From Escherichia coli (GTDB lineage Bacteria; Pseudomonadota; Gammaproteobacteria; Enterobacterales; Enterobacteriaceae), in assembly GCF_003334305.1 (NCBI RefSeq), contig NZ_QOWS01000005.1: 64,000 nucleotides of DNA; one strand, written 5' to 3'. Below are positions 28,649 through 47,300 of this stretch, piece by piece. The number at the start of each line of letters is the position of its first letter. Positions within the stretch are counted from its first letter, which is position 1. The notes beneath the pieces are model-generated. The model worked only from the letters and a program-made list of their open reading frames with translations, had not been told where the DNA came from and made no database searches. Position numbers and translations under genes: made by a program.

Positions 28649-29575
28649 GTGGCAGTCGCCATGGATAATGCAATTTTAGAAAACATCTTGCGGCAAGTGC
28701 GGCCGCTCATTGGTCAGGGTAAAGTCGCGGATTATATTCCGGCGCTGGCTACAGTAGACGGTTCCCGATTGGGCATTGCTATCTGTACCGTTGACGGACA
28801 GCTTTTTCAGGCCGGAGACGCGCAAGAACGTTTTTCCATTCAGTCTATTTCCAAAGTGCTGAGTCTCGTTGTCGCCATGCGTCATTACTCCGAAGAGGAA
28901 ATCTGGCAACGCGTCGGCAAAGATCCGTCTGGATCACCGTTCAATTCTTTAGTGCAACTGGAAATGGAGCAGGGTATTCCGCGTAATCCGTTTATTAATG
29001 CTGGTGCGCTGGTGGTTTGCGATATGTTGCAAGGGCGATTAAGCGCACCACGGCAACGTATGCTGGAAGTCGTGCGCGGCTTAAGCGGTGTGTCTGATAT
29101 TTCATACAATACGGTGGTAGCGCGTTCCGAATTTGAACATTCCGCGCGAAATGCGGCTATCGCCTGGCTGATGAAGTCGTTTGGCAATTTCCATCATGAT
29201 GTGACAACCGTTCTGCAAAACTACTTTCATTACTGCGCTCTGAAAATGAGCTGTGTAGAGCTGGCCCGGACGTTTGTCTTTCTGGCTAATCAGGGGAAAG
29301 CTATTCATATTGATGAACCTGTGGTGACGCCAATGCAGGCGCGGCAAATTAACGCGCTGATGGCGACCAGTGGTATGTACCAGAACGCGGGGGAGTTTGC
29401 CTGGCGGGTGGGGCTACCGGCGAAATCTGGCGTTGGTGGCGGTATTGTGGCGATTGTTCCGCATGAAATGGCCATCGCTGTCTGGAGTCCGGAACTGGAT
29501 GATGCAGGTAACTCGCTTGCGGGTATTGCCGTCCTTGAACAATTGACGAAACAGTTAGGGCGTTCGGTTTATTAA
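28649..29575 (+). CDS. glsB: Glutaminase 2 GlsB (YneH), 308 aa
   Basis: ORF 28649..29575; serine-dependent glutaminase fold (QSISKVL motif). Confidence 0.85.
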
Positions 29576-29934
29576 TGCAGTCTCTCGATCCACTCTTCGC
29601 GCGTTTATCCCGTTCAAAATTTCGCTCTCGCTTTCGTCTGGGCATGAAAGAGCGTCAGTATTGCCTGGAGAAAGGCGCGCCAGTCATCGAACAACATGCG
29701 GCGGATTTTGTCGCTAAACGTCTTGCTCCGGCATTACCGGCTAATGACGGTAAGCAAACCCCCATGCGCGGGCATCCGGTGTTTATCGCTCAGCACGCCA
29801 CCGCGACCTGCTGTCGCGGTTGTCTGGCTAAGTGGCATAACATTCCGCAGGGTGTTTCGTTAAGCGAAGAACAACAACGTTATATCGTGGCGGTAATCTA
29901 TCACTGGCTGGTTGTACAGATGAATCAGCCATGA
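29575..29934 (+). CDS. yneG: DUF4186 family protein YneG (119 aa)
   Basis: ORF 29575..29934; start overlaps the glsB stop (TAATG). Confidence 0.8.
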   Translation: MQSLDPLFARLSRSKFRSRFRLGMKERQYCLEKGAPVIEQHAADFVAKRLAPALPANDGKQTPMRGHPVFIAQHATATCCRGCLAKWHNIPQGVSLSEEQQRYIVAVIYHWLVVQMNQP

Positions 29935-34293: not shown

Positions 34294-35052
34294 TTACTCC
34301 GTACGGCGGGCAACAATAAACAGACGCGGAAATGCCAGCAGTATCTGTTCGTTCTCTTGCAGTGGATACTGCTCTTCCAGCATCTGATGGTAGCGCGTAA
34401 GAAAAAGCTGCTGTTCGCTCTCGGTCAGATCCTGTAACCACGGACGTAATCCAGTGGCGGTCACCCAATCGATAATCGCCTGGTGCGACGGCATCTGGTG
34501 ATAGTAGGTGGTTCGCCAGATATCGACCTCACATCCGGCTTCGCTCAAAATATCGTAGTAAGCATGAACGCCAGCCAACGGCTCACGCCCGCGATCCGGG
34601 TAGTTTTGTTCCCAGGCAACTTCGCGCATGAGCACATGGGTCGGCTCCAGCCAGTTATCTGGCATCTGTACTGCCAGCACGCCCTGCGGATTAAGTAAAG
34701 AAACCAGATGAGGAAACAATTCGTAGTGGTCGGGCAGCCATTGCAGTGAGGCATTAGCAAAAATCAGATCGAGTGCCTGTTCCGGTTGCCAGTTGCGGAT
34801 GTCTGCTTCCACGAACTGGCAGTCTGGCAAAGCACTGCGCGCTTCAGCAATCATCGCCGGAGACGAGTCGATGCCTGTTATCCTGGCAGCAGGCCAACGT
34901 TGGTTTAGAAGGGCGGTGCTGTTACCTGGGCCACAGCCAAGATCGGCAACGTATTCGATATTCTCCAGCGGTACTCTGGCAAGCAGCTCCACCGCCGGAC
35001 GCGATCGTTCAGCGGCAAAGTGCAGATATAAAGAGGGGTTCCAGTCAGACAT
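34294..35052 (-). CDS. tam: Trans-aconitate 2-methyltransferase Tam (252 aa)
   Basis: ORF 34294..35052; SAM-binding motif [10 protein letters not shown]. Confidence 0.85.
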
Positions 35053-35108
35053 TTATTTACTCCCGTCAGCGCGTTACCCCAATTGTAGATAAAACTGATG
35101 AATTCGCC

Positions 35109-35399
35109 TCACGGCATCAACCCATTGAACAGACGTTTTTTACGCGGCCCGGTCATTAAAGATTCCAGTTTCGCGACACAGGTTTTGTAGTGGGGCGTGG
35201 TTTTATGGAATGCCACTGCGTCTTCATCTTTATAGGCTTCGTAGATATAAAAGCGCGAATTCACTTCCGGGTCCTGTAAGACATCGAAGCGCAAATTGCC
35301 TTCTTCCTGTACAGAGCCCAGGTGGTTCTGGCGAAAAACTTCGATAAACTCGTCAATCTTGTCTTCATGAACGTTAATTTCAACCAGTGTGACGTGCAT
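35109..35399 (-). CDS. lsrG: Autoinducer-2 degrading protein LsrG (96 aa)
   Basis: ORF 35109..35399; antibiotic-biosynthesis-monooxygenase fold; last gene of the lsr operon. Confidence 0.9.
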
Positions 35400-35422
35400 A
35401 ATTCTTCTCCTTAAATCCGCAG

Positions 35423-36298
35423 TTACTGTTTTTCACTCAGATAGAGTTCATATGCCCGATCAGCCGTTTCGTTATGGTGAACCACCGCCTGTACGGCTTT
35501 CATCATCGCCACCGGATGGTCAGACTGGAAAATATTACGCCCCATATCCACACCAGAAGCGCCCTGATCGATAGCCTGCCAGCACATTTCCAGCGCCTCG
35601 CGCTCCGGTAATTTTTTACCGCCAGCAATAACAATGGGTACCGGACATCCGGCAACAATCCGTTCAAAACCTTTTTCGACATAATAGGTTTTGATAATTT
35701 GCGCCCCCATTTCAGCGGCGATTCGAGTCGCGAGCGAGAAATAACGCTGATCGCGCACCATATCTTTGCCCACGCCAGTCACGGCCATGGTCGGCATTCC
35801 CACTTTCATTCCGGCATCAACCAGCTGAATAATATTTTTGATCGACTGATGTTCATATTCGCTGCCGATATAAACCTGCGCCGCCACCGCGCAACTGTTC
35901 AGGCGCACGGCATCATCCATCGATAACGCCACGGCTTCATTACTTAATTCCGCCAGAATAGAGTTCGCACCTGACGCCCGCAGTACCACTGGCTTATTGG
36001 TCGCCGGTGGAACTACGCTGCGCAAAATGCCGCGCGTACACATTAATACATCGGCATGTTCAAACAGCGGGGCGATATTTATATCAATGCGTTCAAGTCC
36101 GGTCGTCGGCCCCTGAAAATAACCATGATCAAAGGCCAGCATCACGGTATTACCCGTTTTCGGATTAAATATCCGCGATAAGCGTGACTGCATTCCCCAA
36201 TCCAGCGCACCGCAACCTTTCAGGGTAAAAGGGATATTTTGTTGCGGTTGATCGGTACGAAAATCTTTACCATCTTTAATATCGTCTAAATCTGCCAT
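35423..36298 (-). CDS. lsrF: Phospho-AI-2 thiolase (aldolase-like) LsrF, 291 aa
   Basis: ORF 35423..36298; class I aldolase-like; lsr synteny. Confidence 0.9.
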
Positions 36299-36324
36299 AA
36301 CTTACTCCGGTTAAGTAATGCACA

Positions 36325-37347
36325 TCAGAAATCGTATTTGCCGATATTCTCTTTGTTGAATATCACGCGCTCCGGTAACAGTACGATGCCATTACCATCC
36401 GCTTCGTAGTCATAGCCCTGAACGCTGTTTGGCGAGACTTCAACCTGACCTACGCCCTGGATATCCAGCTTGTCGCCCGTTTTCATTGATCCTTTTTTCA
36501 ATAATGCATCCGCGACATACACTGAAATTTTGCCTTGCTGAACCACATCCCACAGTCCAAATTCTTTCACCGTACCGCGCTCTACATACGGGCGCATCAC
36601 ATTTGGCGTACTGAATCCGACAATCGCTACTTTGTCATTTTTCAGGTTTTCTGCGGCTTGTGCGGCAGCGGGCAGGGCATTGGCATCGGGGGCGATAATG
36701 GCGTCGAGATCGCTATACGCTTTTAATATTCCTTCTGCGGTTTGTAATGATTTAGTGGCATCGTTATAGCCAAACTGCGTAGTGACAATTTCCCAGCCAG
36801 GATGCTCTTTGGCGATTTTCGCTTTCGCTTCTTTCACCCACTGGTTTTGGTCCGTAACGGTGGGGCTTGAGTAGAAAAACGCGACTTTGGCTTTGTCTTT
36901 ATTCACCTGACGCGCCGCCATATCCACCAACATACCTCCCAACTGGGCGGGCGTTCCCTGATTAATGTAGTAAGAGCGGCACTCCGGTTTAGTATCAGAG
37001 TCCCAGGTCAGCACTCTCACACCACGTTGCATGGCGCGTTTCAGTGCCGGACACAAGCCATCAGGCGAAACCGCAGAAACGATAATGGCGTTATAACCTT
37101 GATTGACGAAGTTATTAATCAACTGTACCTGACCAGAAACACTGGGTTCTGTCGGCCCGTCGTAGGTCACATCAACGCTCAGCTCTTCACCCGCTTGTTG
37201 TGCGCCGTTGCCACCGCTGGTAAAAAATCCCACGCCAACCAGTTTGGGAATAAATGCAATACGCTCTGCGGCCTGCACATTCATAGAGATTGCGGCAATG
37301 CCAAGAGCGCTAAGTAAGGCGATTTTCTTAAAGCGATGAAGTGTCAT
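36325..37347 (-). CDS. lsrB: Periplasmic AI-2 binding protein LsrB (340 aa)
   Basis: ORF 36325..37347 with signal peptide. Confidence 0.9.
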
Positions 37348-37358
37348 GAAGATATCCT

Positions 37359-38351
37359 TTATGGCAATGGGTTATTGGCCCGACGCGCCAGCCACTCTTT
37401 AATTTGCTGGCGATGCAGGCTAACGGAACGACCTACGACAACGACGATAAGTAGCGCACCGGAAAGGGCGCTGGACACCTGATTTGGCACTCCTGCCATT
37501 TGCAAACCTTGTTGCAAATATCCCACTAATAAAACCGCAATGGCGGTGCCGATAATGGAACCGGAACCACCATAAATATTGGCCCCGCCAAGCACCACGG
37601 CGGTGATGGCGGGCATCAGAAACGACGCACCGAGATCGGAACGTGCTGAACCAAAATACGATACCAGCAGCACAGCGGCGACCGCAGACGCCAGCCCCGT
37701 CATGGCATAGAGCGCACATAAGGTGCGGTTAACTGGAATCGCGCTATAAAGCGCCACGCGCGGGCTTTGCCCAATCAAAAACACATTACGTCCGGCATGG
37801 GTTTTATGCAGCCAGAGCCAGAAAACGAGGAGACATATCAGGAAGATAATCAGCGGAACGGGGAGTCCCAGCACATCCAGGTTAGCGAAATCTGTAAACG
37901 CCATCGGGAATCCACCAATACCTTCGTACCTCGTCGCTCCGGCCATACCGGAAAGCAGCAGAGCGCTTCCGGCAAACAGATACAGCGTGCCAAGCGTAAT
38001 CACCAGCGGGTTAACTTTGGTATAGATAATTAATCCGGCGTTGATCAGCCCGCACAATGCGCCGAGCAGTAAGGTCAGGAGTATCGCCAGCGGCATCGGC
38101 ACACCACTTTGAAACAGTACGCCCAATGCAATGGCGCAGAGGCCGATGGTCGAACCAAACGAAATATCGATCCCGCCACTGACAATCACCATCGTCAGCG
38201 GTAGGGCGACAATGCCAATGCAGATAAAGTCACTGGTGCTGAACAGCAACATATTGAGATCTAACATTCGCGGGTTAATTGCACCAAATGCGACAATCTC
38301 AATAACGAGCAGTGCGGCAAGAGCCAGTTCCCAACCGTAGCGAATACGCAT
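37359..38351 (-). CDS. lsrD: AI-2 ABC transporter permease LsrD (330 aa)
   Basis: ORF 37359..38351; start overlaps lsrC stop. Confidence 0.9.
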
Positions 38352-39379
38352 TATGCGGCCTCCCGTTTTTTACCTGACGAAGCGGGTTTAACGGATGGCG
38401 GTGGCGTCATAAAGCGGGCATATTTTTGCCGCCGTAGATTACGTTCCAGCGCACAACGCAGGCGTCCATCAAACACCAGCACCGCCAGCAGCACGAGGCC
38501 CGCGATAAAATCGTTCCACCATGCCGGAATGCGCAACAGCACCAGTACGCTATCGATCTGCGTCAGGAACCATGCGCCGAGTACCGCACCGATGATCGCA
38601 CCGGAACCGCCGAGCAAACTAATGCCGCCCAGCACGCAGGCTGCAATTGCTTTCATCTCCAGCCCGGTACCGGTCTGGTTGGGGATAAAACCAATCTGCG
38701 AAGCAAACACAATTCCCGCCAGTGCCGCCATGCAGCCGTTCAACGAAAATGCCACAATGCGAATGGCTTCCGTACGAACACCCAGTTGACGAGCGCCCTG
38801 TAAATTATCGCCCGTGGCATAAAAACTGCGTCCAAACGCCGTCTTTGCCAGCAGCCAGGCCATAAATGCCACCAGAATTATCGTCAACCAACCAATCGCG
38901 GAAACGCCAAACAGCAGCGGTGCGGAGAGCTGTTTCAGTTCGGCGGGTAACCCTTCAATCCATTTACCGCCAGTCCACAGCAACATGATGCCTCTGTACA
39001 ACCCTAACGTGCCAAGGGTGGCAACAATGGCAGGGATCTTTAGCCACGCGACCAGGACACCGTTGAAAAATCCCGCGAGCAAACCAAGCAGTAAAGTCGC
39101 GACACAAGCAACAGGTAGTGAATACCCCGCGTTCAGTAACATCCCCAACAGCACTGCGCACATTCCGGTAATCGAACCCACTGAAACATCAATATTGCGC
39201 GTAAGCATTACCAGCGTCGCGCCCATTGCCAGCAGGATCAGGATTTGCGCGCTGCTATAAACCATGGTCAGCGTTTGCACACTTAAATACTGGCGGTCGA
39301 GAAAACCGGGTAATGCAAACAGCAGCACCACCGCCAGCAGTGCCGTGATTTCACGGTTGTTCTGAATAAACTTCAGCAT
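38351..39379 (-). CDS. lsrC: AI-2 ABC transporter permease LsrC (342 aa)
   Basis: ORF 38351..39379; overlaps lsrA 3' end by 7 nt. Confidence 0.9.
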
Positions 39380-40908
39380 GACACCTCCTGACGCTGACTA
39401 TCGCCGAAGGCAACGCGCATAATAGTCTCGACATTAATATCGCGCCCGGTCAGTGCAGAGTGGGCAATTTCGCCCTGATGCATCACATACACGCGATCTG
39501 CCATCAGTTCGATCTCTTCCAGATCGGAGGAGATAAGCAGCACTGCCACATTTTGTGCGGCGATGCTGCGCAACAGCTGGTAGATATCATTACGGGCCGA
39601 GACATCCACGCCGCGCGTCGGCTCATCGACAATCAATGCTTGCGGCGAAGCTTCCAGGCATTTGGCAATGAGGATTTTTTGCTGGTTGCCACCGGATAAT
39701 GTCCGTGCAGCTTGTTCCGGTTGGTTAAATTTAATATTCAGCGCCCGACGATAACGTTCCAGGGTGGCATTATCTTTCGCGGTTTTCGCCCAGAATCCAC
39801 GAAGGTTATGAGTAAGGGCGCAGACGTTCCAGGCAAGCGAAGCATCGAGATTCAGTCCGGATGACTGGCGATCTTCCGGCAGATAAACCAGACCGCGCAG
39901 TAAACGTTCTCCAGTGGATAATTTATTGATCTCTTTACCATTCAGCATAATGCATCCGCCACGCAAAGTACGCAGACCATAGAGCGTCTCGGCCAGTTCT
40001 GTGCGTCCGGCCCCCACCAGCCCAGCCAGGCCCAGAATTTCTCCGGCATTGAGCGTCATGCTGACATTCCTGAAACCTTCGCCGGTCAGATTTTCCAGTG
40101 TCAGCACCGGCGTTCCGGCAGCATGTTGTGGGCGGTTACCAGGTAACTCCAGCCATAATTTTTGGCTGGCAGAGAGCGATTTTTCCCGTACCACTGGCGT
40201 GATGGCCTGAATAATGTCGTCGGTAGACAGTTCGCTGGTTTTGCCGCTTAAGGCGATGGTTCCGTCGCGCATCACGCTAATTCGATCGGCAATCTGGCGA
40301 ATTTCCGGCAGCTTATGCGAGATAAAAACAATACCCACGCCAGTAGCAAGCAGCTCTTGCAAGCGAGTAAACAAGCGTTCGGTTTCCGCAGGGGTAAGCG
40401 AGGCGGTAGGTTCATCGAGGATCAGAATCCGCGAGTCGCGCATTAGCCCGCGGAGGATTTCCACCATTTGGCGATCGGCGACATCCAGCGATCCTGCCAG
40501 ACTATGCAGATCAAACTGGCAGCCCAGCGCCGCCAGCAAGTTCTTCATTTTTTGCATGGAGAGCTGTTTTTTTGCCATCCCAAACAGGATGTTTTCTTTT
40601 ATCGACAGGCTTGGGAAAAGCAGCGGTTCCTGGGGAACGAGATAAATGCCCAGCTGATGAGCATGAACTGGCGTTAATCTGGCGTAGTTGTTGCCCCCAA
40701 TCTCCAGCGTACCGCTATCAGCAGGGGTAATACCGGCAATAATCTTCATTAACGTCGATTTACCGGCACCATTGCCGCCGAGCAGGGCGTGGACCTCCCC
40801 CTGATGCAACGTAAAATCGATGCCTTTCAGGACATTGACCCCTGAATACTGTTTATAAACCGAGCGGGCGCAAAGTAGCGGTAACGCGCGGGTATCACTC
40901 GTTTGCAT
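39373..40908 (-). CDS. lsrA: AI-2 ABC transporter ATP-binding protein LsrA (tandem ABC domains, 511 aa)
   Basis: ORF 39373..40908; two Walker A motifs (GGNGAGKST and GLVGAGRT). Confidence 0.9.
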
Positions 40909-41156
40909 ATTTCCCCCGTTCAGTTTTGCAGGTGAGTTTTGAACAAATGTATTTCTGCTTTTAATTTGTTCATAACCTTAGGTGGACATTGCACATATTT
41001 CCGACGAATAGATCACAATTTATGCTATTTTGATTTTCACGGTTGCGTTTGTTCATGCTCGTAGAGTCAAACTGTGGCTGCCATCACAGATATAAATGCG
41101 CAAGAACTGAACAATTGCATTAAAGATTTAAATATGTTCAAAGTGAAGAATGAATT
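40909..41156. promoter_or_regulatory. Divergent lsrA / lsrR promoter-operator region
   Basis: 248-bp AT-rich intergenic spacer between divergent lsrACDBFG and lsrRK; this region is known to carry LsrR operators and a CRP site, but individual sites were not resolved here. Confidence 0.55.
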
Positions 41157-42110
41157 ATGACAATCAACGATTCGGCAATTTCAGAACAGGGAATGTGTGA
41201 AGAAGAACAGGTCGCGCGGATCGCGTGGTTTTACTATCACGACGGGCTGACCCAGAGCGAGATCAGCGATCGTCTCGGCCTGACCCGTTTGAAAGTGTCG
41301 CGCTTGCTGGAGAAAGGGCATCAGTCCGGCATTATTCGCGTACAGATTAATTCTCGCTTTGAAGGCTGTCTGGAATATGAAACTCAATTACGTCGTCAGT
41401 TTTCGCTGCAACATGTCCGGGTGATCCCTGGGCTTGCGGATGCTGATGTCGGCGGGCGACTGGGGATAGGCGCGGCGCATATGTTGATGAGTTTACTTCA
41501 ACCACAACAGATGCTGGCGATTGGTTTTGGCGAGGCAACCATGAATACGCTGCAACGCTTAAGTGGTTTTATTTCGTCACAGCAAATTCGCCTGGTCACG
41601 CTCTCCGGTGGCGTCGGTTCTTATATGACGGGTATCGGGCAGCTTAACGCGGCGTGCAGTGTGAATATTATTCCGGCTCCGTTGCGGGCATCCTCCGCTG
41701 ACATTGCCCGTACGCTAAAAAATGAAAATTGCGTCAAAGATGTTCTGTTAGCCGCGCAAGCAGCCGATGTGGCGATTGTCGGCATTGGGGCCGTCAGTCA
41801 ACAGGACGACGCGACGATCATTCGCTCCGGTTATATCAGCCAGGGCGAACAGTTAATGATTGGTCGAAAAGGGGCGGTTGGCGACATTTTAGGCTACTTT
41901 TTTGATGCAAAAGGTGACGTTGTCACGGATATTAAAATACATAACGAACTGATTGGCTTACCTTTAAGCTCGCTGAAGACCATACCCGTCCGGGTTGGCG
42001 TGGCAGGGGGAGAAAATAAAGCCGAAGCAATTGCCGCTGCAATGAAAGGCGGTTATATCAACGCACTGGTTACCGATCAGGACACAGCAGCGGCGATTTT
42101 ACGTAGTTAA
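41157..42110 (+). CDS. lsrR: SorC-family repressor LsrR (317 aa)
   Basis: ORF 41157..42110. Confidence 0.9.
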
Positions 42111-42188
42111 ATTTGCATGACCTTATTACCGGGAATGATGGAGAACGTATAGAGGAACAGACAGAACGCATAAGCCGAGGATAATCTA

Positions 42189-43781
42189 ATGGCTCGACTC
42201 TTTACCCCTTCAGAATCAAAGTATTACCTGATGGCGCTGGATGCAGGTACCGGAAGTATTCGGGCTGTGATATTCGACCTGGAAGGCAATCAAATAGCAG
42301 TGGGACAGGCGGAGTGGCGGCACCTGGCAGTACCGGACGTTCCTGGTTCTATGGAATTTGATCTCAACAAAAACTGGCAACTGGCGTGTGAGTGTATGCG
42401 CCAGGCGCTGCACAACGCCGGCATAGCCCCGGAGTATATCGCTGCCGTTTCGGCATGTTCGATGCGTGAAGGCATTGTTTTATATAATAATGAAGGAGCC
42501 CCGATCTGGGCCTGCGCCAATGTGGATGCCAGAGCGGCACGCGAAGTTAGCGAACTTAAAGAACTGCACAACAATACCTTTGAAAACGAAGTTTATCGCG
42601 CGACCGGACAAACACTGGCTTTAAGTGCCATCCCCAGATTACTTTGGCTGGCGCACCATCGTTCCGATATTTACCGTCAGGCATCAACCATCACCATGAT
42701 CAGCGACTGGCTGGCCTATATGCTCAGCGGCGAACTGGCGGTGGATCCCTCTAACGCTGGCACCACGGGACTTCTTGATCTAACCACCCGTGACTGGAAA
42801 CCTGCATTGCTGGATATGGCTGGCCTGCGTGCCGATATTCTTTCTCCTGTCAAAGAAACCGGCACATTGCTGGGCGTGGTAAGTTCACAAGCGGCGGAAC
42901 TCTGCGGTCTGAAGGCGGGCACTCCGGTGGTCGTTGGAGGAGGCGACGTGCAGCTTGGTTGCCTTGGGTTAGGCGTTGTGCGTCCGGCACAAACCGCGGT
43001 TCTTGGCGGCACATTCTGGCAGCAAGTTGTAAATTTAGCCGCGCCGGTGACAGACCCAGAAATGAACGTGCGCGTTAATCCTCATGTTATTCCTGGCATG
43101 GTACAAGCTGAATCTATAAGCTTTTTTACCGGACTCACCATGCGCTGGTTCCGCGATGCTTTCTGTGCCGAAGAAAAACTGATTGCCGAACGTTTAGGCA
43201 TCGACACCTATACGCTGCTGGAAGAGATGGCCAGTCGGGTGCCGCCTGGGTCGTGGGGCGTAATGCCGATCTTCTCCGACAGAATGCGCTTTAAAACCTG
43301 GTATCACGCTGCGCCTTCCTTTATTAACTTGTCCATTGAGCCGGATAAATGTAACAAAGCGACATTGTTCCGTGCGCTGGAAGAAAATGCGGCGATTGTA
43401 TCAGCGTGTAACTTGCAGCAAATTGCTGATTTCTCGAATATTCATCCTTCATCGTTAGTCTTTGCAGGCGGAGGTTCAAAAGGGAAATTATGGAGTCAAA
43501 TTCTCGCTGATGTCTCGGGATTACCCGTCAATATTCCGGTGGTCAAAGAAGCCACTGCATTAGGATGTGCCATTGCAGCTGGCGTCGGTGCCGGAATTTT
43601 TTCATCAATGGCAGAAACCGGAGAACGCCTGGTTCGCTGGGAACGGACGCACACACCAGACCCGGAAAAGCATGAACTTTATCAGGATTCACGCGATAAG
43701 TGGCAGGCAGTTTATCAGGATCAGCTGGGGCTGGTTGATCATGGACTGACGACGTCGTTATGGAAAGCGCCTGGGTTATAG
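42189..43781 (+). CDS. lsrK: Autoinducer-2 kinase LsrK (FGGY carbohydrate kinase, 530 aa)
   Basis: ORF 42189..43781. Confidence 0.9.
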
Positions 43782-44311: not shown

Positions 44312-47300
44312 ATGAATAGAATCTATCGCGTGATATGGAATTGCACTCTACAGGTATTTCAGGCCTGCTCGGAATTAACTCGCAGGGCAGGTAAAACATC
44401 GACGGTTAATTTGCGTAAATCCTCTGGACTGACAACGAAATTCAGTAGATTGACGCTGGGTGTTTTGCTGGCACTAAGCGGTTCAGCGTCTGGTGCAAGT
44501 CTGGAAGTTGATAATGATCAGATTACCAATATTGATACTGATGTTGCTTATGATGCCTACCTGGTTGGCTGGTATGGCACTGGAGTGCTTAATATTTTGG
44601 CTGGCGGTAATGCCTCCTTAACCACTATTACTACCAGCGTCATTGGCGCTAATGAGGACTCAGAGGGCACCGTTAATGTTTTGGGTGGCACCTGGCGATT
44701 GTATGATAGCGGAAATAATGCAAGGCCTTTAAATGTGGGTCAATCCGGAACGGGGACGCTGAATATTAAACAGAAAGGTCACGTTGATGGAGGCTATTTA
44801 AGACTAGGTTCCTCGACAGGAGGCGTCGGGACGGTCAATGTTGAGGGAGAGGACTCTGTTCTGACGACCGAATTATTCGAAATAGGGAGTTACGGTACGG
44901 GATCATTAAATATTACGGATAAGGGTTACGTCACGAGTTCAATAGTCGCCATTTTAGGCTATCAGGCGGGCAGTAATGGCCAGGTTGTCGTTGAAAAGGG
45001 CGGTGAGTGGCTAATAAAAAATAACGATTCCTCAATTGAATTTCAAATTGGTAATCAAGGAACTGGGGAAGCGACTATTCGCGAGGGTGGACTGATTACG
45101 GCTGAAAACACGATTATCGGTGGCAATGCTACCGGTATCGGAACCCTGAATGTGCAGGATCAAGACTCTGTCATCACGGTACGCAGACTCTATAATGGAT
45201 ATTTCGGTAATGGCACACTCAATATTTCCAATAATGGACTAATTAATAACAAAGAATATTCATTAGTGGGCGTTCAGGACGGTTCCCACGGTGTCGTCAA
45301 CGTGACCGATAAAGGGCATTGGAATTTCCTCGGAACGGGCGAAGCTTTCCGCTATATCTATATCGGTGATGCTGGCGACGGTGAACTTAATGTCTCGCGT
45401 GAAGGTAAAGTAGATTCGGGAATTATCACTGCGGGGATGAAAGAAACAGGCACAGGCAACATTACTGTTAAGGATAAGAACTCCGTTATCACTAATCTCG
45501 GAACTAATCTTGGTTATGACGGCCACGGCGAAATGAATATCAGTAATGAAGGGCTTGTTGTCAGCAACGGAGGAAGCTCACTCGGTTATGGAGAAACCGG
45601 CGTCGGGAATGTCAGCATCACCACGGGGGGGATGTGGGAGGTCAATAAGAATGTCTATACCACCATTGGTGTTGCGGGCGTCGGAAACCTCAATATTAGC
45701 GATGGCGGTAAGTTCGTATCGCAAAATATTACTTTTTTGGGCGATAAAGCAAGCGGTATCGGCACACTGAACCTGATGGATGCGACATCATCGTTCGATA
45801 CTGTGGGTATCAATGTCGGTAATTTTGGTAGCGGTATCGTAAATGTCAGTAATGGTGCCACCCTTAATTCAACGGGCTATGGATTTATCGGAGGAAATGC
45901 CTCCGGTAAGGGGATAGTTAATATTTCAACGGACAGTCTCTGGAATTTAAAGACATCATCTACTAACGCACAATTGCTACAGGTCGGTGTATTAGGCAAG
46001 GGTGAACTGAATATTACCACCGGAGGTATAGTTAAAGCGCGTGATACACAGATAGCTCTCAATGACAAAAGTAAGGGCGACGTGAGGGTGGATGGGCAGA
46101 ACTCTCTTCTTGAAACATTCAATATGTACGTAGGGACATCTGGTACGGGTACGTTAACCCTGACGAATAGCGGCACGCTGAATGTCGAAGGTGGAGAAGT
46201 TTACTTAGGTGTTTTTGAACCTGCTGTAGGAACGCTAAACATTGGTGCAGCTCACGGTGAGGCGGCGGCAGATGCCGGGTATATAACCAACGCGACGAAA
46301 GTAGAGTTTGGTTCTGGCGAAGGTGTTTTTGTCTTTAATCATACTAATAACAGTGATGCCGGCTACCAGGTCGATATGCTGATTACAGGTGACGATAAAG
46401 ACGGAAAAGTGATCCATGATGCAGGCCATACGGTGTTCAATGCAGGGAATACTTATAGCGGTAAAACGCTGGTCAATGACGGCCTCCTGACCATTGCGTC
46501 TCATACGGCAGATGGGGTAACGGGCATGGGTTCGAGTGAAGTCACCATTGCAAGCCCCGGTACGCTCGACATTCTCGCATCAACGAACAGTGCAGGAGAT
46601 TACACGCTGACCAATGCGCTCAAAGGCGATGGCTTGATGCGAGTGCAGCTGTCATCCTACGACAAGATGTTTGGCTTTACCCATGCAACAGGGACTGAAT
46701 TCGCCGGTGTTGCCCAACTGAAAGACAGTACCTTCACTCTGGAACGCGACAACACCGCTGCGCTTACTCACGCGATGTTGCAGTCTGACAGTGAAAATAC
46801 CACATCGGTAAAAGTGGGAGAGCAATCCATTGGTGGACTGGCCATGAATGGCGGTACGCTCATTTTCGATACGGATATTCCTGCTGCGACGCTTGCAGAG
46901 GGATATATCAGCGTCGATACGCTGGTTGTCGGCGCGGGTGACTACACCTGGAAAGGCCGTAACTATCAGGTAAACGGGACGGGCGACGTGCTTATCGACG
47001 TGCCTAAACCGTGGAATGATCCCATGGCGAATAACCCTCTGACGACGCTCAATTTGCTGGAACACGACGATAGCCATGTCGGCGTTCAACTGGTGAAGGC
47101 GCAAACGGTTATTGGGTCGGGTGGCTCATTAACGTTACGTGATTTACAGGGCGACGAGGTGGAAGCGGACAAAACGTTACACATTGCGCAAAACGGAACG
47201 GTGGTCGCCGAGGGTGATTATGGATTCCGCCTCACGACCGCACCAGGTGATGGTTTGTACGTTAACTATGGGCTGAAAGCGCTGAACATCCATGGTGGGC

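Follow-up and report, generated by a model that had tools for sequence, protein, structure and literature searches.

The lsr and sad-glsB-yneG operons

The window analysed here, a 64,000-nt stretch of E. coli DNA, agrees from end to end, with 0 mismatches, with the reverse complement of positions 2394830-2458829 of E. coli A7 (NZ_CP028767.1), and the CDS ends in the RefSeq/PGAP annotation of A7 are the same as those in the window (Table 1). Positions 37359-39379 correspond exactly to two minus-strand reading frames, those of lsrD and lsrC. These belong to lsrACDBFG, the operon for AI-2 uptake and processing of E. coli and Salmonella (Taga, Xavier and Bassler): the genes follow in the order lsrA-C-D-B-F-G next to a divergent lsrR-lsrK, the locus is 100% identical to the annotated A7 locus, and gene order, protein lengths and RefSeq names are identical to those of the known system, from which we found no difference. 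LsrC homologues likewise carry LsrC names in their source records. On the plus strand, sad precedes glsB and yneG, the same genes in the same order as in the PtrR (YneJ)-regulated sad-glsB-yneG (yneIHG) operon, which is documented in PMC9283627 and bioRxiv 10.1101/2020.04.27.065417.

Both operons being documented, the lsr pairs and the glsB/yneG pair are each same-strand neighbours within one transcription unit. A search of the coding strand across the lsrA-lsrB interior gave no promoter-like site, and terminator-like hits at chance level only. At least 80% of the region is present in only 4,187 of 5,426 complete genomes, and decay of the operon is known in many E. coli strains (PMC3595036). 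The literature that we found on lsrACDBFG is concerned with transcriptional control and with loss of the operon in some strains, translation not being its topic, and we found no paper linking lsrACDBFG with translational coupling. Similarly, neither of the two papers on sad-glsB-yneG cited above takes up the overlap of glsB with yneG or the translation of yneG.

Table 1. Genes, gene junctions and Shine-Dalgarno motifs of the two operons, in window coordinates.
Feature	Position	Strand	Description
lsrA	39373-40908	minus	511 aa; ATP-binding subunit; ORF and RefSeq
lsrC	38351-39379	minus	342 aa; permease; ORF and RefSeq
lsrD	37359-38351	minus	330 aa; permease; ORF and RefSeq
lsrB	36325-37347	minus	340 aa; periplasmic AI-2 binding protein; ORF and RefSeq
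lsrF	35423-36298	minus	RefSeq
lsrG	35109-35399	minus	RefSeq
lsrR / lsrK	41157-43781	plus	divergent; RefSeq
glsB	28649-29575	plus	308 aa; glutaminase B; GTG start; preceded by sad
yneG	29575-29934	plus	119 aa; DUF4186
lsrA/lsrC overlap	39373-39379	minus	7 nt, ATGCTGA; lsrC ATG 39379-39377, lsrA TGA 39375-39373
lsrC/lsrD overlap	38349-38353	minus	1 nt, TAATG; sequence and RefSeq
lsrD-lsrB spacer	37348-37358	minus	11 nt; TAA, 11 nt, ATG
glsB/yneG overlap	29573-29577	plus	1 nt, TAATG; sequence and RefSeq
lsrC Shine-Dalgarno motif, AGGAGGTG	39382-39389	minus	within last lsrA codons (Q-E-V); -11.6 kcal/mol
lsrD Shine-Dalgarno motif, GGGAGG	38359-38364	minus	last lsrC codons (R-E), 7 nt before ATG; -10.3 kcal/mol
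lsrB weak Shine-Dalgarno motif, AAGGA	37355-37359	minus	overlaps lsrD stop codon; -5.4 kcal/mol

Junction geometry, start codons and ribosome-binding motifs

A preliminary description of this DNA had reported a 7-nt overlap of lsrA and lsrC as well as an overlap of the glsB stop with the yneG start in a shared TAATG. Both are borne out (Table 1), the former on the minus strand, which that description left unstated, and the latter on the plus strand. The lsrC stop had been described as abutting the lsrD start; the contact is real, but it is a 1-nt overlap rather than an abutment. The lsrD/lsrB junction, with its 11-nt gap, was absent from the description. On the coding strand the end of lsrA reads ...CAG GAG GTG TCA TGC TGA, with the lsrC ATG inside it, and lsrC runs into lsrD as ...CGG GAG GCC GCA TAA TG.

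These overlaps would vanish were the true start codons elsewhere, a condition that the preliminary description had itself raised. No in-frame ATG, GTG or TTG lies upstream of the lsrC, lsrD or yneG start before the next stop is reached, and the next candidates downstream are codon 17 of lsrC, codon 29 of lsrD and codon 24 of yneG. Downstream starts are implausible because conserved N-terminal residues would be lost: in ten genera LsrC begins M-L-K-(F/L)-I-Q-x-N-R-E, with M-L-K invariant, while in seven genera YneG begins M-x-x-L-x-x-L-F-(A/S)-R. No other start codon removes an overlap, and all three stand. The stop-to-start distances are thus -7 nt for lsrA/lsrC and -1 nt for both lsrC/lsrD and glsB/yneG, within the -8 to +10 nt taken as predictive of coupling (Huber et al. 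2023), with lsrD/lsrB, at +11 nt, just beyond.

Motif strength was calculated as the duplex energy with the 3' end of 16S rRNA. A Shine-Dalgarno motif embedded near the end of the preceding gene, which is usual for coupled pairs though not obligatory, is found for lsrC and lsrD (Table 1) and is missing for yneG, which has no properly spaced motif, only an AGGG about 14 nt upstream with a duplex energy of -3.9 kcal/mol.

Conservation of the overlaps across genera

Overlaps within a single genome are nothing unusual. In the window 5 of 43 same-direction pairs overlap, hipB/hipA and mgtS/mgtT in addition to the three described above, and across E. coli 707 of 2,987 same-direction pairs (24%) are spaced at -8 to +6 nt, with a further 7% at +9 to +12 nt, the class that includes lsrD/lsrB (PMC10666635). 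We therefore compared the window with 80 species-representative loci (81 loci in all, from 28 genera) containing LsrC relatives at 65-97% identity, placing the four genes of each locus by tblastn and then scoring the junctions. The sample consists mostly of Enterobacterales, with Martelella and a Vibrio; as the species are related, the counts below are not independent events.

lsrA and lsrC overlap in 79 of the 81 loci, by 7 nt in 56, 4 nt in 9, 8 nt in 4, 20 nt in 4, 1 nt in 3, 49 nt in 2 and 16 nt in 1, the stop being TGA or TAA, and the remaining two loci (L064 and L079) have a disrupted lsrA with a junction of the same sequence type. At lsrC/lsrD the distance is zero or negative in 74 of 81 loci (-1 in 44, -4 in 20, 0 in 7 and a longer overlap in 3). 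Three further loci (L045, L047 and L056) possess an overlapping ATG that the automatic choice of start codon skipped, bringing the total to 77 of 81 (about 95%); the exceptions are spacings of +2, +7 and +90 nt and one fused reading frame. Eight outlier loci were inspected by hand: the five just named, an LsrC-LsrD fusion ORF (L055), an extended lsrC (L052) and a real gap of +7 nt (L053). By contrast, a gap lies between lsrD and lsrB in 78 of the 79 loci that could be scored, ranging from 1 to 150 nt with a median of 29, and the two genes overlap in only one.

The overlaps at lsrA/lsrC and lsrC/lsrD persist through changes of length, of stop codon (TGA, TAA or TAG) and of the surrounding codons. 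What goes beyond chance is that they do so across 28 genera while the adjoining lsrD/lsrB junction stays non-overlapping. The constancy of the 7-nt form is in part a constraint at the protein level, because the invariant Leu2-Lys3 of LsrC (YTG-AAR) contains TGA. The ribosome-binding motifs are also retained: one of -6 kcal/mol or stronger lies ahead of lsrC in 79% of the 81 loci and ahead of lsrD in 88%, against a background of 8.8% among 11,406 windows taken from inside the coding regions of these genes. Both LsrA (after A-F-G) and LsrC (after Q-K-Y-A-R-F) have C-terminal tails that differ among genera in length and sequence, yet these tails finish on a purine-rich motif whose distance to the next start is constant.

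Proposed translation of lsrA, lsrC and lsrD

[quoted passage not shown] 2019 and 2023), which are same-direction operon neighbours, as are the pairs described here, and are similarly separated by short distances. Four of five native overlapping E. coli pairs were found to be strictly coupled, bioBF being uncoupled (Huber et al. 2019, PMC6728339), and coupling requires a distance of less than about 20 nt (PMC10666635). The geometry of the lsr and glsB/yneG junctions falls inside the range experimentally shown to couple native pairs (PMC6728339, PMC10666635). The known systems share with lsrC and lsrD a Shine-Dalgarno motif in the last codons of the upstream gene, and with lsrA, lsrC and lsrD the encoding of heteromeric-complex subunits, for which closely spaced E. 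coli pairs are 4.5-fold enriched, although about 70% of such pairs encode no complex (PMC10666635). They differ in that their coupling is experimental and that of the lsr and glsB/yneG pairs predicted, and the -7 overlap of lsrA/lsrC is rarer than those of -4, -1 and -8 nt. The ordinary stop/start overlaps in these two known operons most likely give rise to termination-reinitiation coupling. Geometry, start codons, motifs and their conservation are what we observe, and from these we infer coupling, how strong it is and how it bears on protein ratios.

A ribosome ending lsrA would terminate at the UGA, which lies 4 nt beyond the AUG of lsrC, where the AGGAGGUG motif just upstream would keep the small ribosomal subunit in place and so permit a restart on lsrC. 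The same restart would occur at the UAAUG between lsrC and lsrD, and the output of three subunits of a membrane complex, probably LsrA1:LsrC1:LsrD1, would thereby be linked. Fresh ribosomes may also be able to load at the strong lsrC and lsrD motifs, so coupling need not be absolute. lsrB, with a spacer and its own weak motif, would probably be initiated largely independently, possibly allowing a different amount of binding protein.

The suggested stoichiometry follows from the domain structure of LsrA, in which two Pfam ABC_tran domains are found in one chain (residues 27-169 and 280-431), an arrangement also evident as internal self-similarity. One LsrA could therefore serve one LsrC-LsrD pair, making a 1:1:1 complex plausible; judged by domain count only, LsrA1:LsrC1:LsrD1 is the probable composition, and serial coupling would plausibly fit it. 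We take LsrA to be RbsA-like, that is, to belong to the sugar-type ABC importers whose ATP-binding domains are fused in tandem. Such fused importers resemble the 511-aa LsrA in having two ABC domains in one chain, while Lsr differs in using two different permease genes, and its stoichiometry is one we infer. Proportional synthesis of complex subunits is documented in E. coli, where transcriptional and post-transcriptional controls tune ratios within operons (PMC7195860). The ribosome-profiling numbers that we found for lsr are fold-changes in a uL22 ribosomal mutant only, not synthesis rates, and the supplement of an acid-stress ribosome-profiling study contains no lsr entries.

Two claims of the preliminary description need to be softened in this light. 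That the overlaps fix stoichiometry is overstated, given that the strong motifs of lsrC and lsrD (-11.6 and -10.3 kcal/mol, respectively) allow fresh initiation. That any indel in the region would be polar holds for upstream frameshift and nonsense mutations, since these, in lsrA or lsrC, would stop ribosomes before the overlap, so that coupling would be lost and the mRNA exposed to Rho, the action of which on exposed mRNA is the known basis of polarity (PMC12548453); it should not hold for in-frame indels outside the final ~20 nt.

The overlaps could instead be neutral by-products of genome compaction and of stop/start drift, with each gene initiated independently and the overlap without effect. 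Indeed, lsrC and lsrD each have a strong and well-spaced motif that could allow initiation wholly independent of the upstream gene, overlaps are as common in E. coli as the 24% given above, one of the five E. coli overlaps tested is uncoupled (PMC6728339), and the RNA at the junctions is no more stably folded than its shuffles, leaving nothing obvious to block fresh initiation. A compaction bias would, however, be expected to act on all three junctions alike, whereas lsrA/lsrC and lsrC/lsrD stay at or below zero in 28 genera through at least seven forms of overlap and lsrD/lsrB drifts between 1 and 150 nt. That lsrD/lsrB drifts freely in the same operon argues against a general compaction bias, and its contrast with the two junctions that are kept argues for selection for linked translation of lsrA, lsrC and lsrD. 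In addition, yneG is without a usable motif in seven genera, yet its protein is made. We consider it unlikely that the overlaps are neutral.

Two models of coupling, RNA unfolding and ribosome reinitiation or scanning, are distinguished in a recent review (PMC12548453). Under the former, the downstream ribosome-binding site would be locked in a hairpin opened only by a ribosome translating the upstream gene, and in the minimum-energy and centroid folds of the E. coli sequence the AGGAGG of the lsrC motif does pair with GCCUUCGGCG, which encodes A-F-G in lsrA and lies about 20 nt upstream. All four junction segments, however, fail to fold better than their dinucleotide shuffles (z = -0.59, +0.99, +0.21 and +1.66), and an lsrA/lsrC alignment of 17 genomes gives zero consensus pairs, with widely varying spacing between A-F-G and the motif. 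In short, a stable and conserved hairpin was not found, the comparative data weakly refute RNA unfolding as the main mechanism, which we reject as improbable, and reinitiation at the overlap would seem the better-supported of the two models. A programmed frameshift or fusion site at lsrA/lsrC, yielding some LsrA-LsrC fusion protein, is suggested by the Shine-Dalgarno-like motif close upstream of the UGA, superficially like the prfB site, and by database ORFs that join LsrA and LsrC. Nonetheless, the last 60 nt of lsrA contain no X XXY YYZ slippery heptamer, a stop codon interrupts the lsrC frame 7 codons before the ATG, and the database joins (423-579 aa) are internal deletions, for example of LsrA 1-271 with LsrC 24-342, rather than junction frameshifts, and are consistent with the operon decay known from E. 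coli (PMC3595036). We reject such a site as scarcely credible, and retain reinitiation as the most likely consequence of the lsrA/lsrC and lsrC/lsrD overlaps.

The glsB/yneG junction

Six other genera (Salmonella, Citrobacter, Kluyvera, Kosakonia, Lelliottia and one more enterobacterial contig) retain a 1-nt overlap of glsB and yneG in the form TGATG: the last base of the gene for a 308-aa glutaminase is also the first of the DUF4186 gene. The neighbours of the pair differ among these loci, with sad or a chemoreceptor gene upstream and variable genes downstream. Among the seven genera no motif was found nearer than about 13 nt to the yneG ATG. YneG protein has been detected, its level going up along with those of Sad and GlsB on induction of the operon (PMC11480449). 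With no usable Shine-Dalgarno motif, yneG probably depends on reinitiation after glsB: its translation would probably come almost exclusively from ribosomes fresh from termination on glsB at the UAAUG, and of the junctions considered, glsB/yneG is the likeliest to depend wholly on reinitiation.

In having no usable motif it departs from the termination-reinitiation systems described above, and the overlap does not by itself imply a complex of YneG with GlsB. A more speculative proposal is that yneG is a natural case of obligatory, Shine-Dalgarno-independent reinitiation, in which the amount of YneG would be strictly set by GlsB translation, hinting at a functional tie of YneG and GlsB in the Enterobacteriaceae; we put this forward only tentatively, and think it less likely than not. 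YneG is a Cys/His-rich protein, and we found no solved structures related to it. In the three contexts outside the Enterobacteriaceae that we looked up, DUF4186 was not beside a glutaminase, and elsewhere the domain occurs in fusions with helicases, a nuclease, GNAT, NUDIX or DUF5131. We therefore reject YneG as a general partner of glutaminase, these standalone non-enterobacterial genes lying apart from one, and any link between YneG and glutaminase is lineage-specific at best.

Implications

The overlaps are real and conserved beyond chance, yet they are a textbook arrangement in two well-annotated operons and as such already known: they are present in every annotation of the locus, and the class to which they belong has been studied both genome-wide and experimentally. 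The only mildly novel thread is the apparent dependence of yneG on reinitiation without a Shine-Dalgarno motif. In practical terms, engineering of lsr by deletion, tagging or refactoring should retain the last ~20 nt of lsrA and of lsrC, because the ribosome-binding site and start codon of the next gene lie there. A clean glsB deletion must similarly retain the 3' end of glsB, as yneG would otherwise likely be silenced. For the Lsr transporter, the overlaps at lsrA/lsrC and lsrC/lsrD, set against the gap at lsrD/lsrB, provide a tidy illustration of overlaps being kept where subunits are needed in proportion.

Stop/start overlaps in the window

Five of the 43 same-direction gene pairs in the window overlap, namely lsrA/lsrC, lsrC/lsrD and glsB/yneG, together with hipB/hipA and the small-protein genes mgtS/mgtT, the last two each through a 1-nt TAATG overlap. 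The sole Rfam match within the window, STnc560 (281.9 bits), which we take to be the MgrR sRNA, lies antisense to the entire annotated mgtT frame and the end of mgtS. An intact 5.4-kb autotransporter gene of the ECSE_1600 family is found between lsrK and hipB, at a locus that is presumably a pseudogene in K-12; RefSeq annotates two pseudogenes elsewhere in the window (see table).

Features of the window, with positions in window numbering
Feature	Position	Strand	Remark
STnc560	12704-12917	+	Rfam match
mgtT reading frame	12807-12911	-	annotated
mgtS/mgtT overlap	near 12911	-	TAATG
GntR-family regulator pseudogene	15459-16157	-	internal stop; RefSeq
yneG	29575-29934	+	DUF4186
lsr region	35000-41200		
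LsrC C-terminal tail	38351-38420	-	
LsrA C-terminal tail	39373-39420	-	
ECSE_1600-family autotransporter gene	44312-49732	+	intact
hipB/hipA overlap	50205-50209	+	TAATG
Helix-turn-helix fragment	51841-52049	+	frameshifted pseudogene; RefSeq

YneG as a putative accessory module

YneG, encoded 3' of glutaminase B, carries an invariant H...CCRGC...W.H motif; a search for a relative with a solved structure found none. In other lineages DUF4186 is fused to DUF5131, UvrD/RecD-type helicases, PD-(D/E)XK nuclease, GNAT acetyltransferase, NUDIX or DnaJ domains, and a GNAT gene follows yneG in Citrobacter and lies farther downstream in Kluyvera. Together, the motif, fusions and GNAT neighbours hint that YneG is an accessory module that binds metal, and not a partner specific to glutaminase.

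Variable tails, chimeric reading frames and loss of the lsr genes

Across the window and the 80 lsr loci compared with it (L002-L081), the C-terminal tails of the ATP-binding subunit LsrA and the permease LsrC are hypervariable between genera in both length and sequence, except for the final few codons, which encode the ribosome-binding site of the next gene. Judged by this pattern, the tails seem to evolve more like RNA spacers than like protein. In Xenorhabdus sp. IM139775 (L055) the lsrC/lsrD junction has been lost by deletion between two CAACGTTAYG repeats, which spell Q-R-Y both in the tail of LsrC and in the N-terminus of LsrD, leaving a single reading frame that spans both permeases (L055:3001-4953); this could be a true natural fusion or an assembly error. 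Public protein sets hold many chimeric LsrA-LsrC and LsrC-LsrD reading frames arising by internal deletions. Of the 5,426 complete E. coli genomes, only 4,187 contain 80% or more of the lsr region. Such losses and chimeric frames are consistent with the published picture of 'labile signal reception'.
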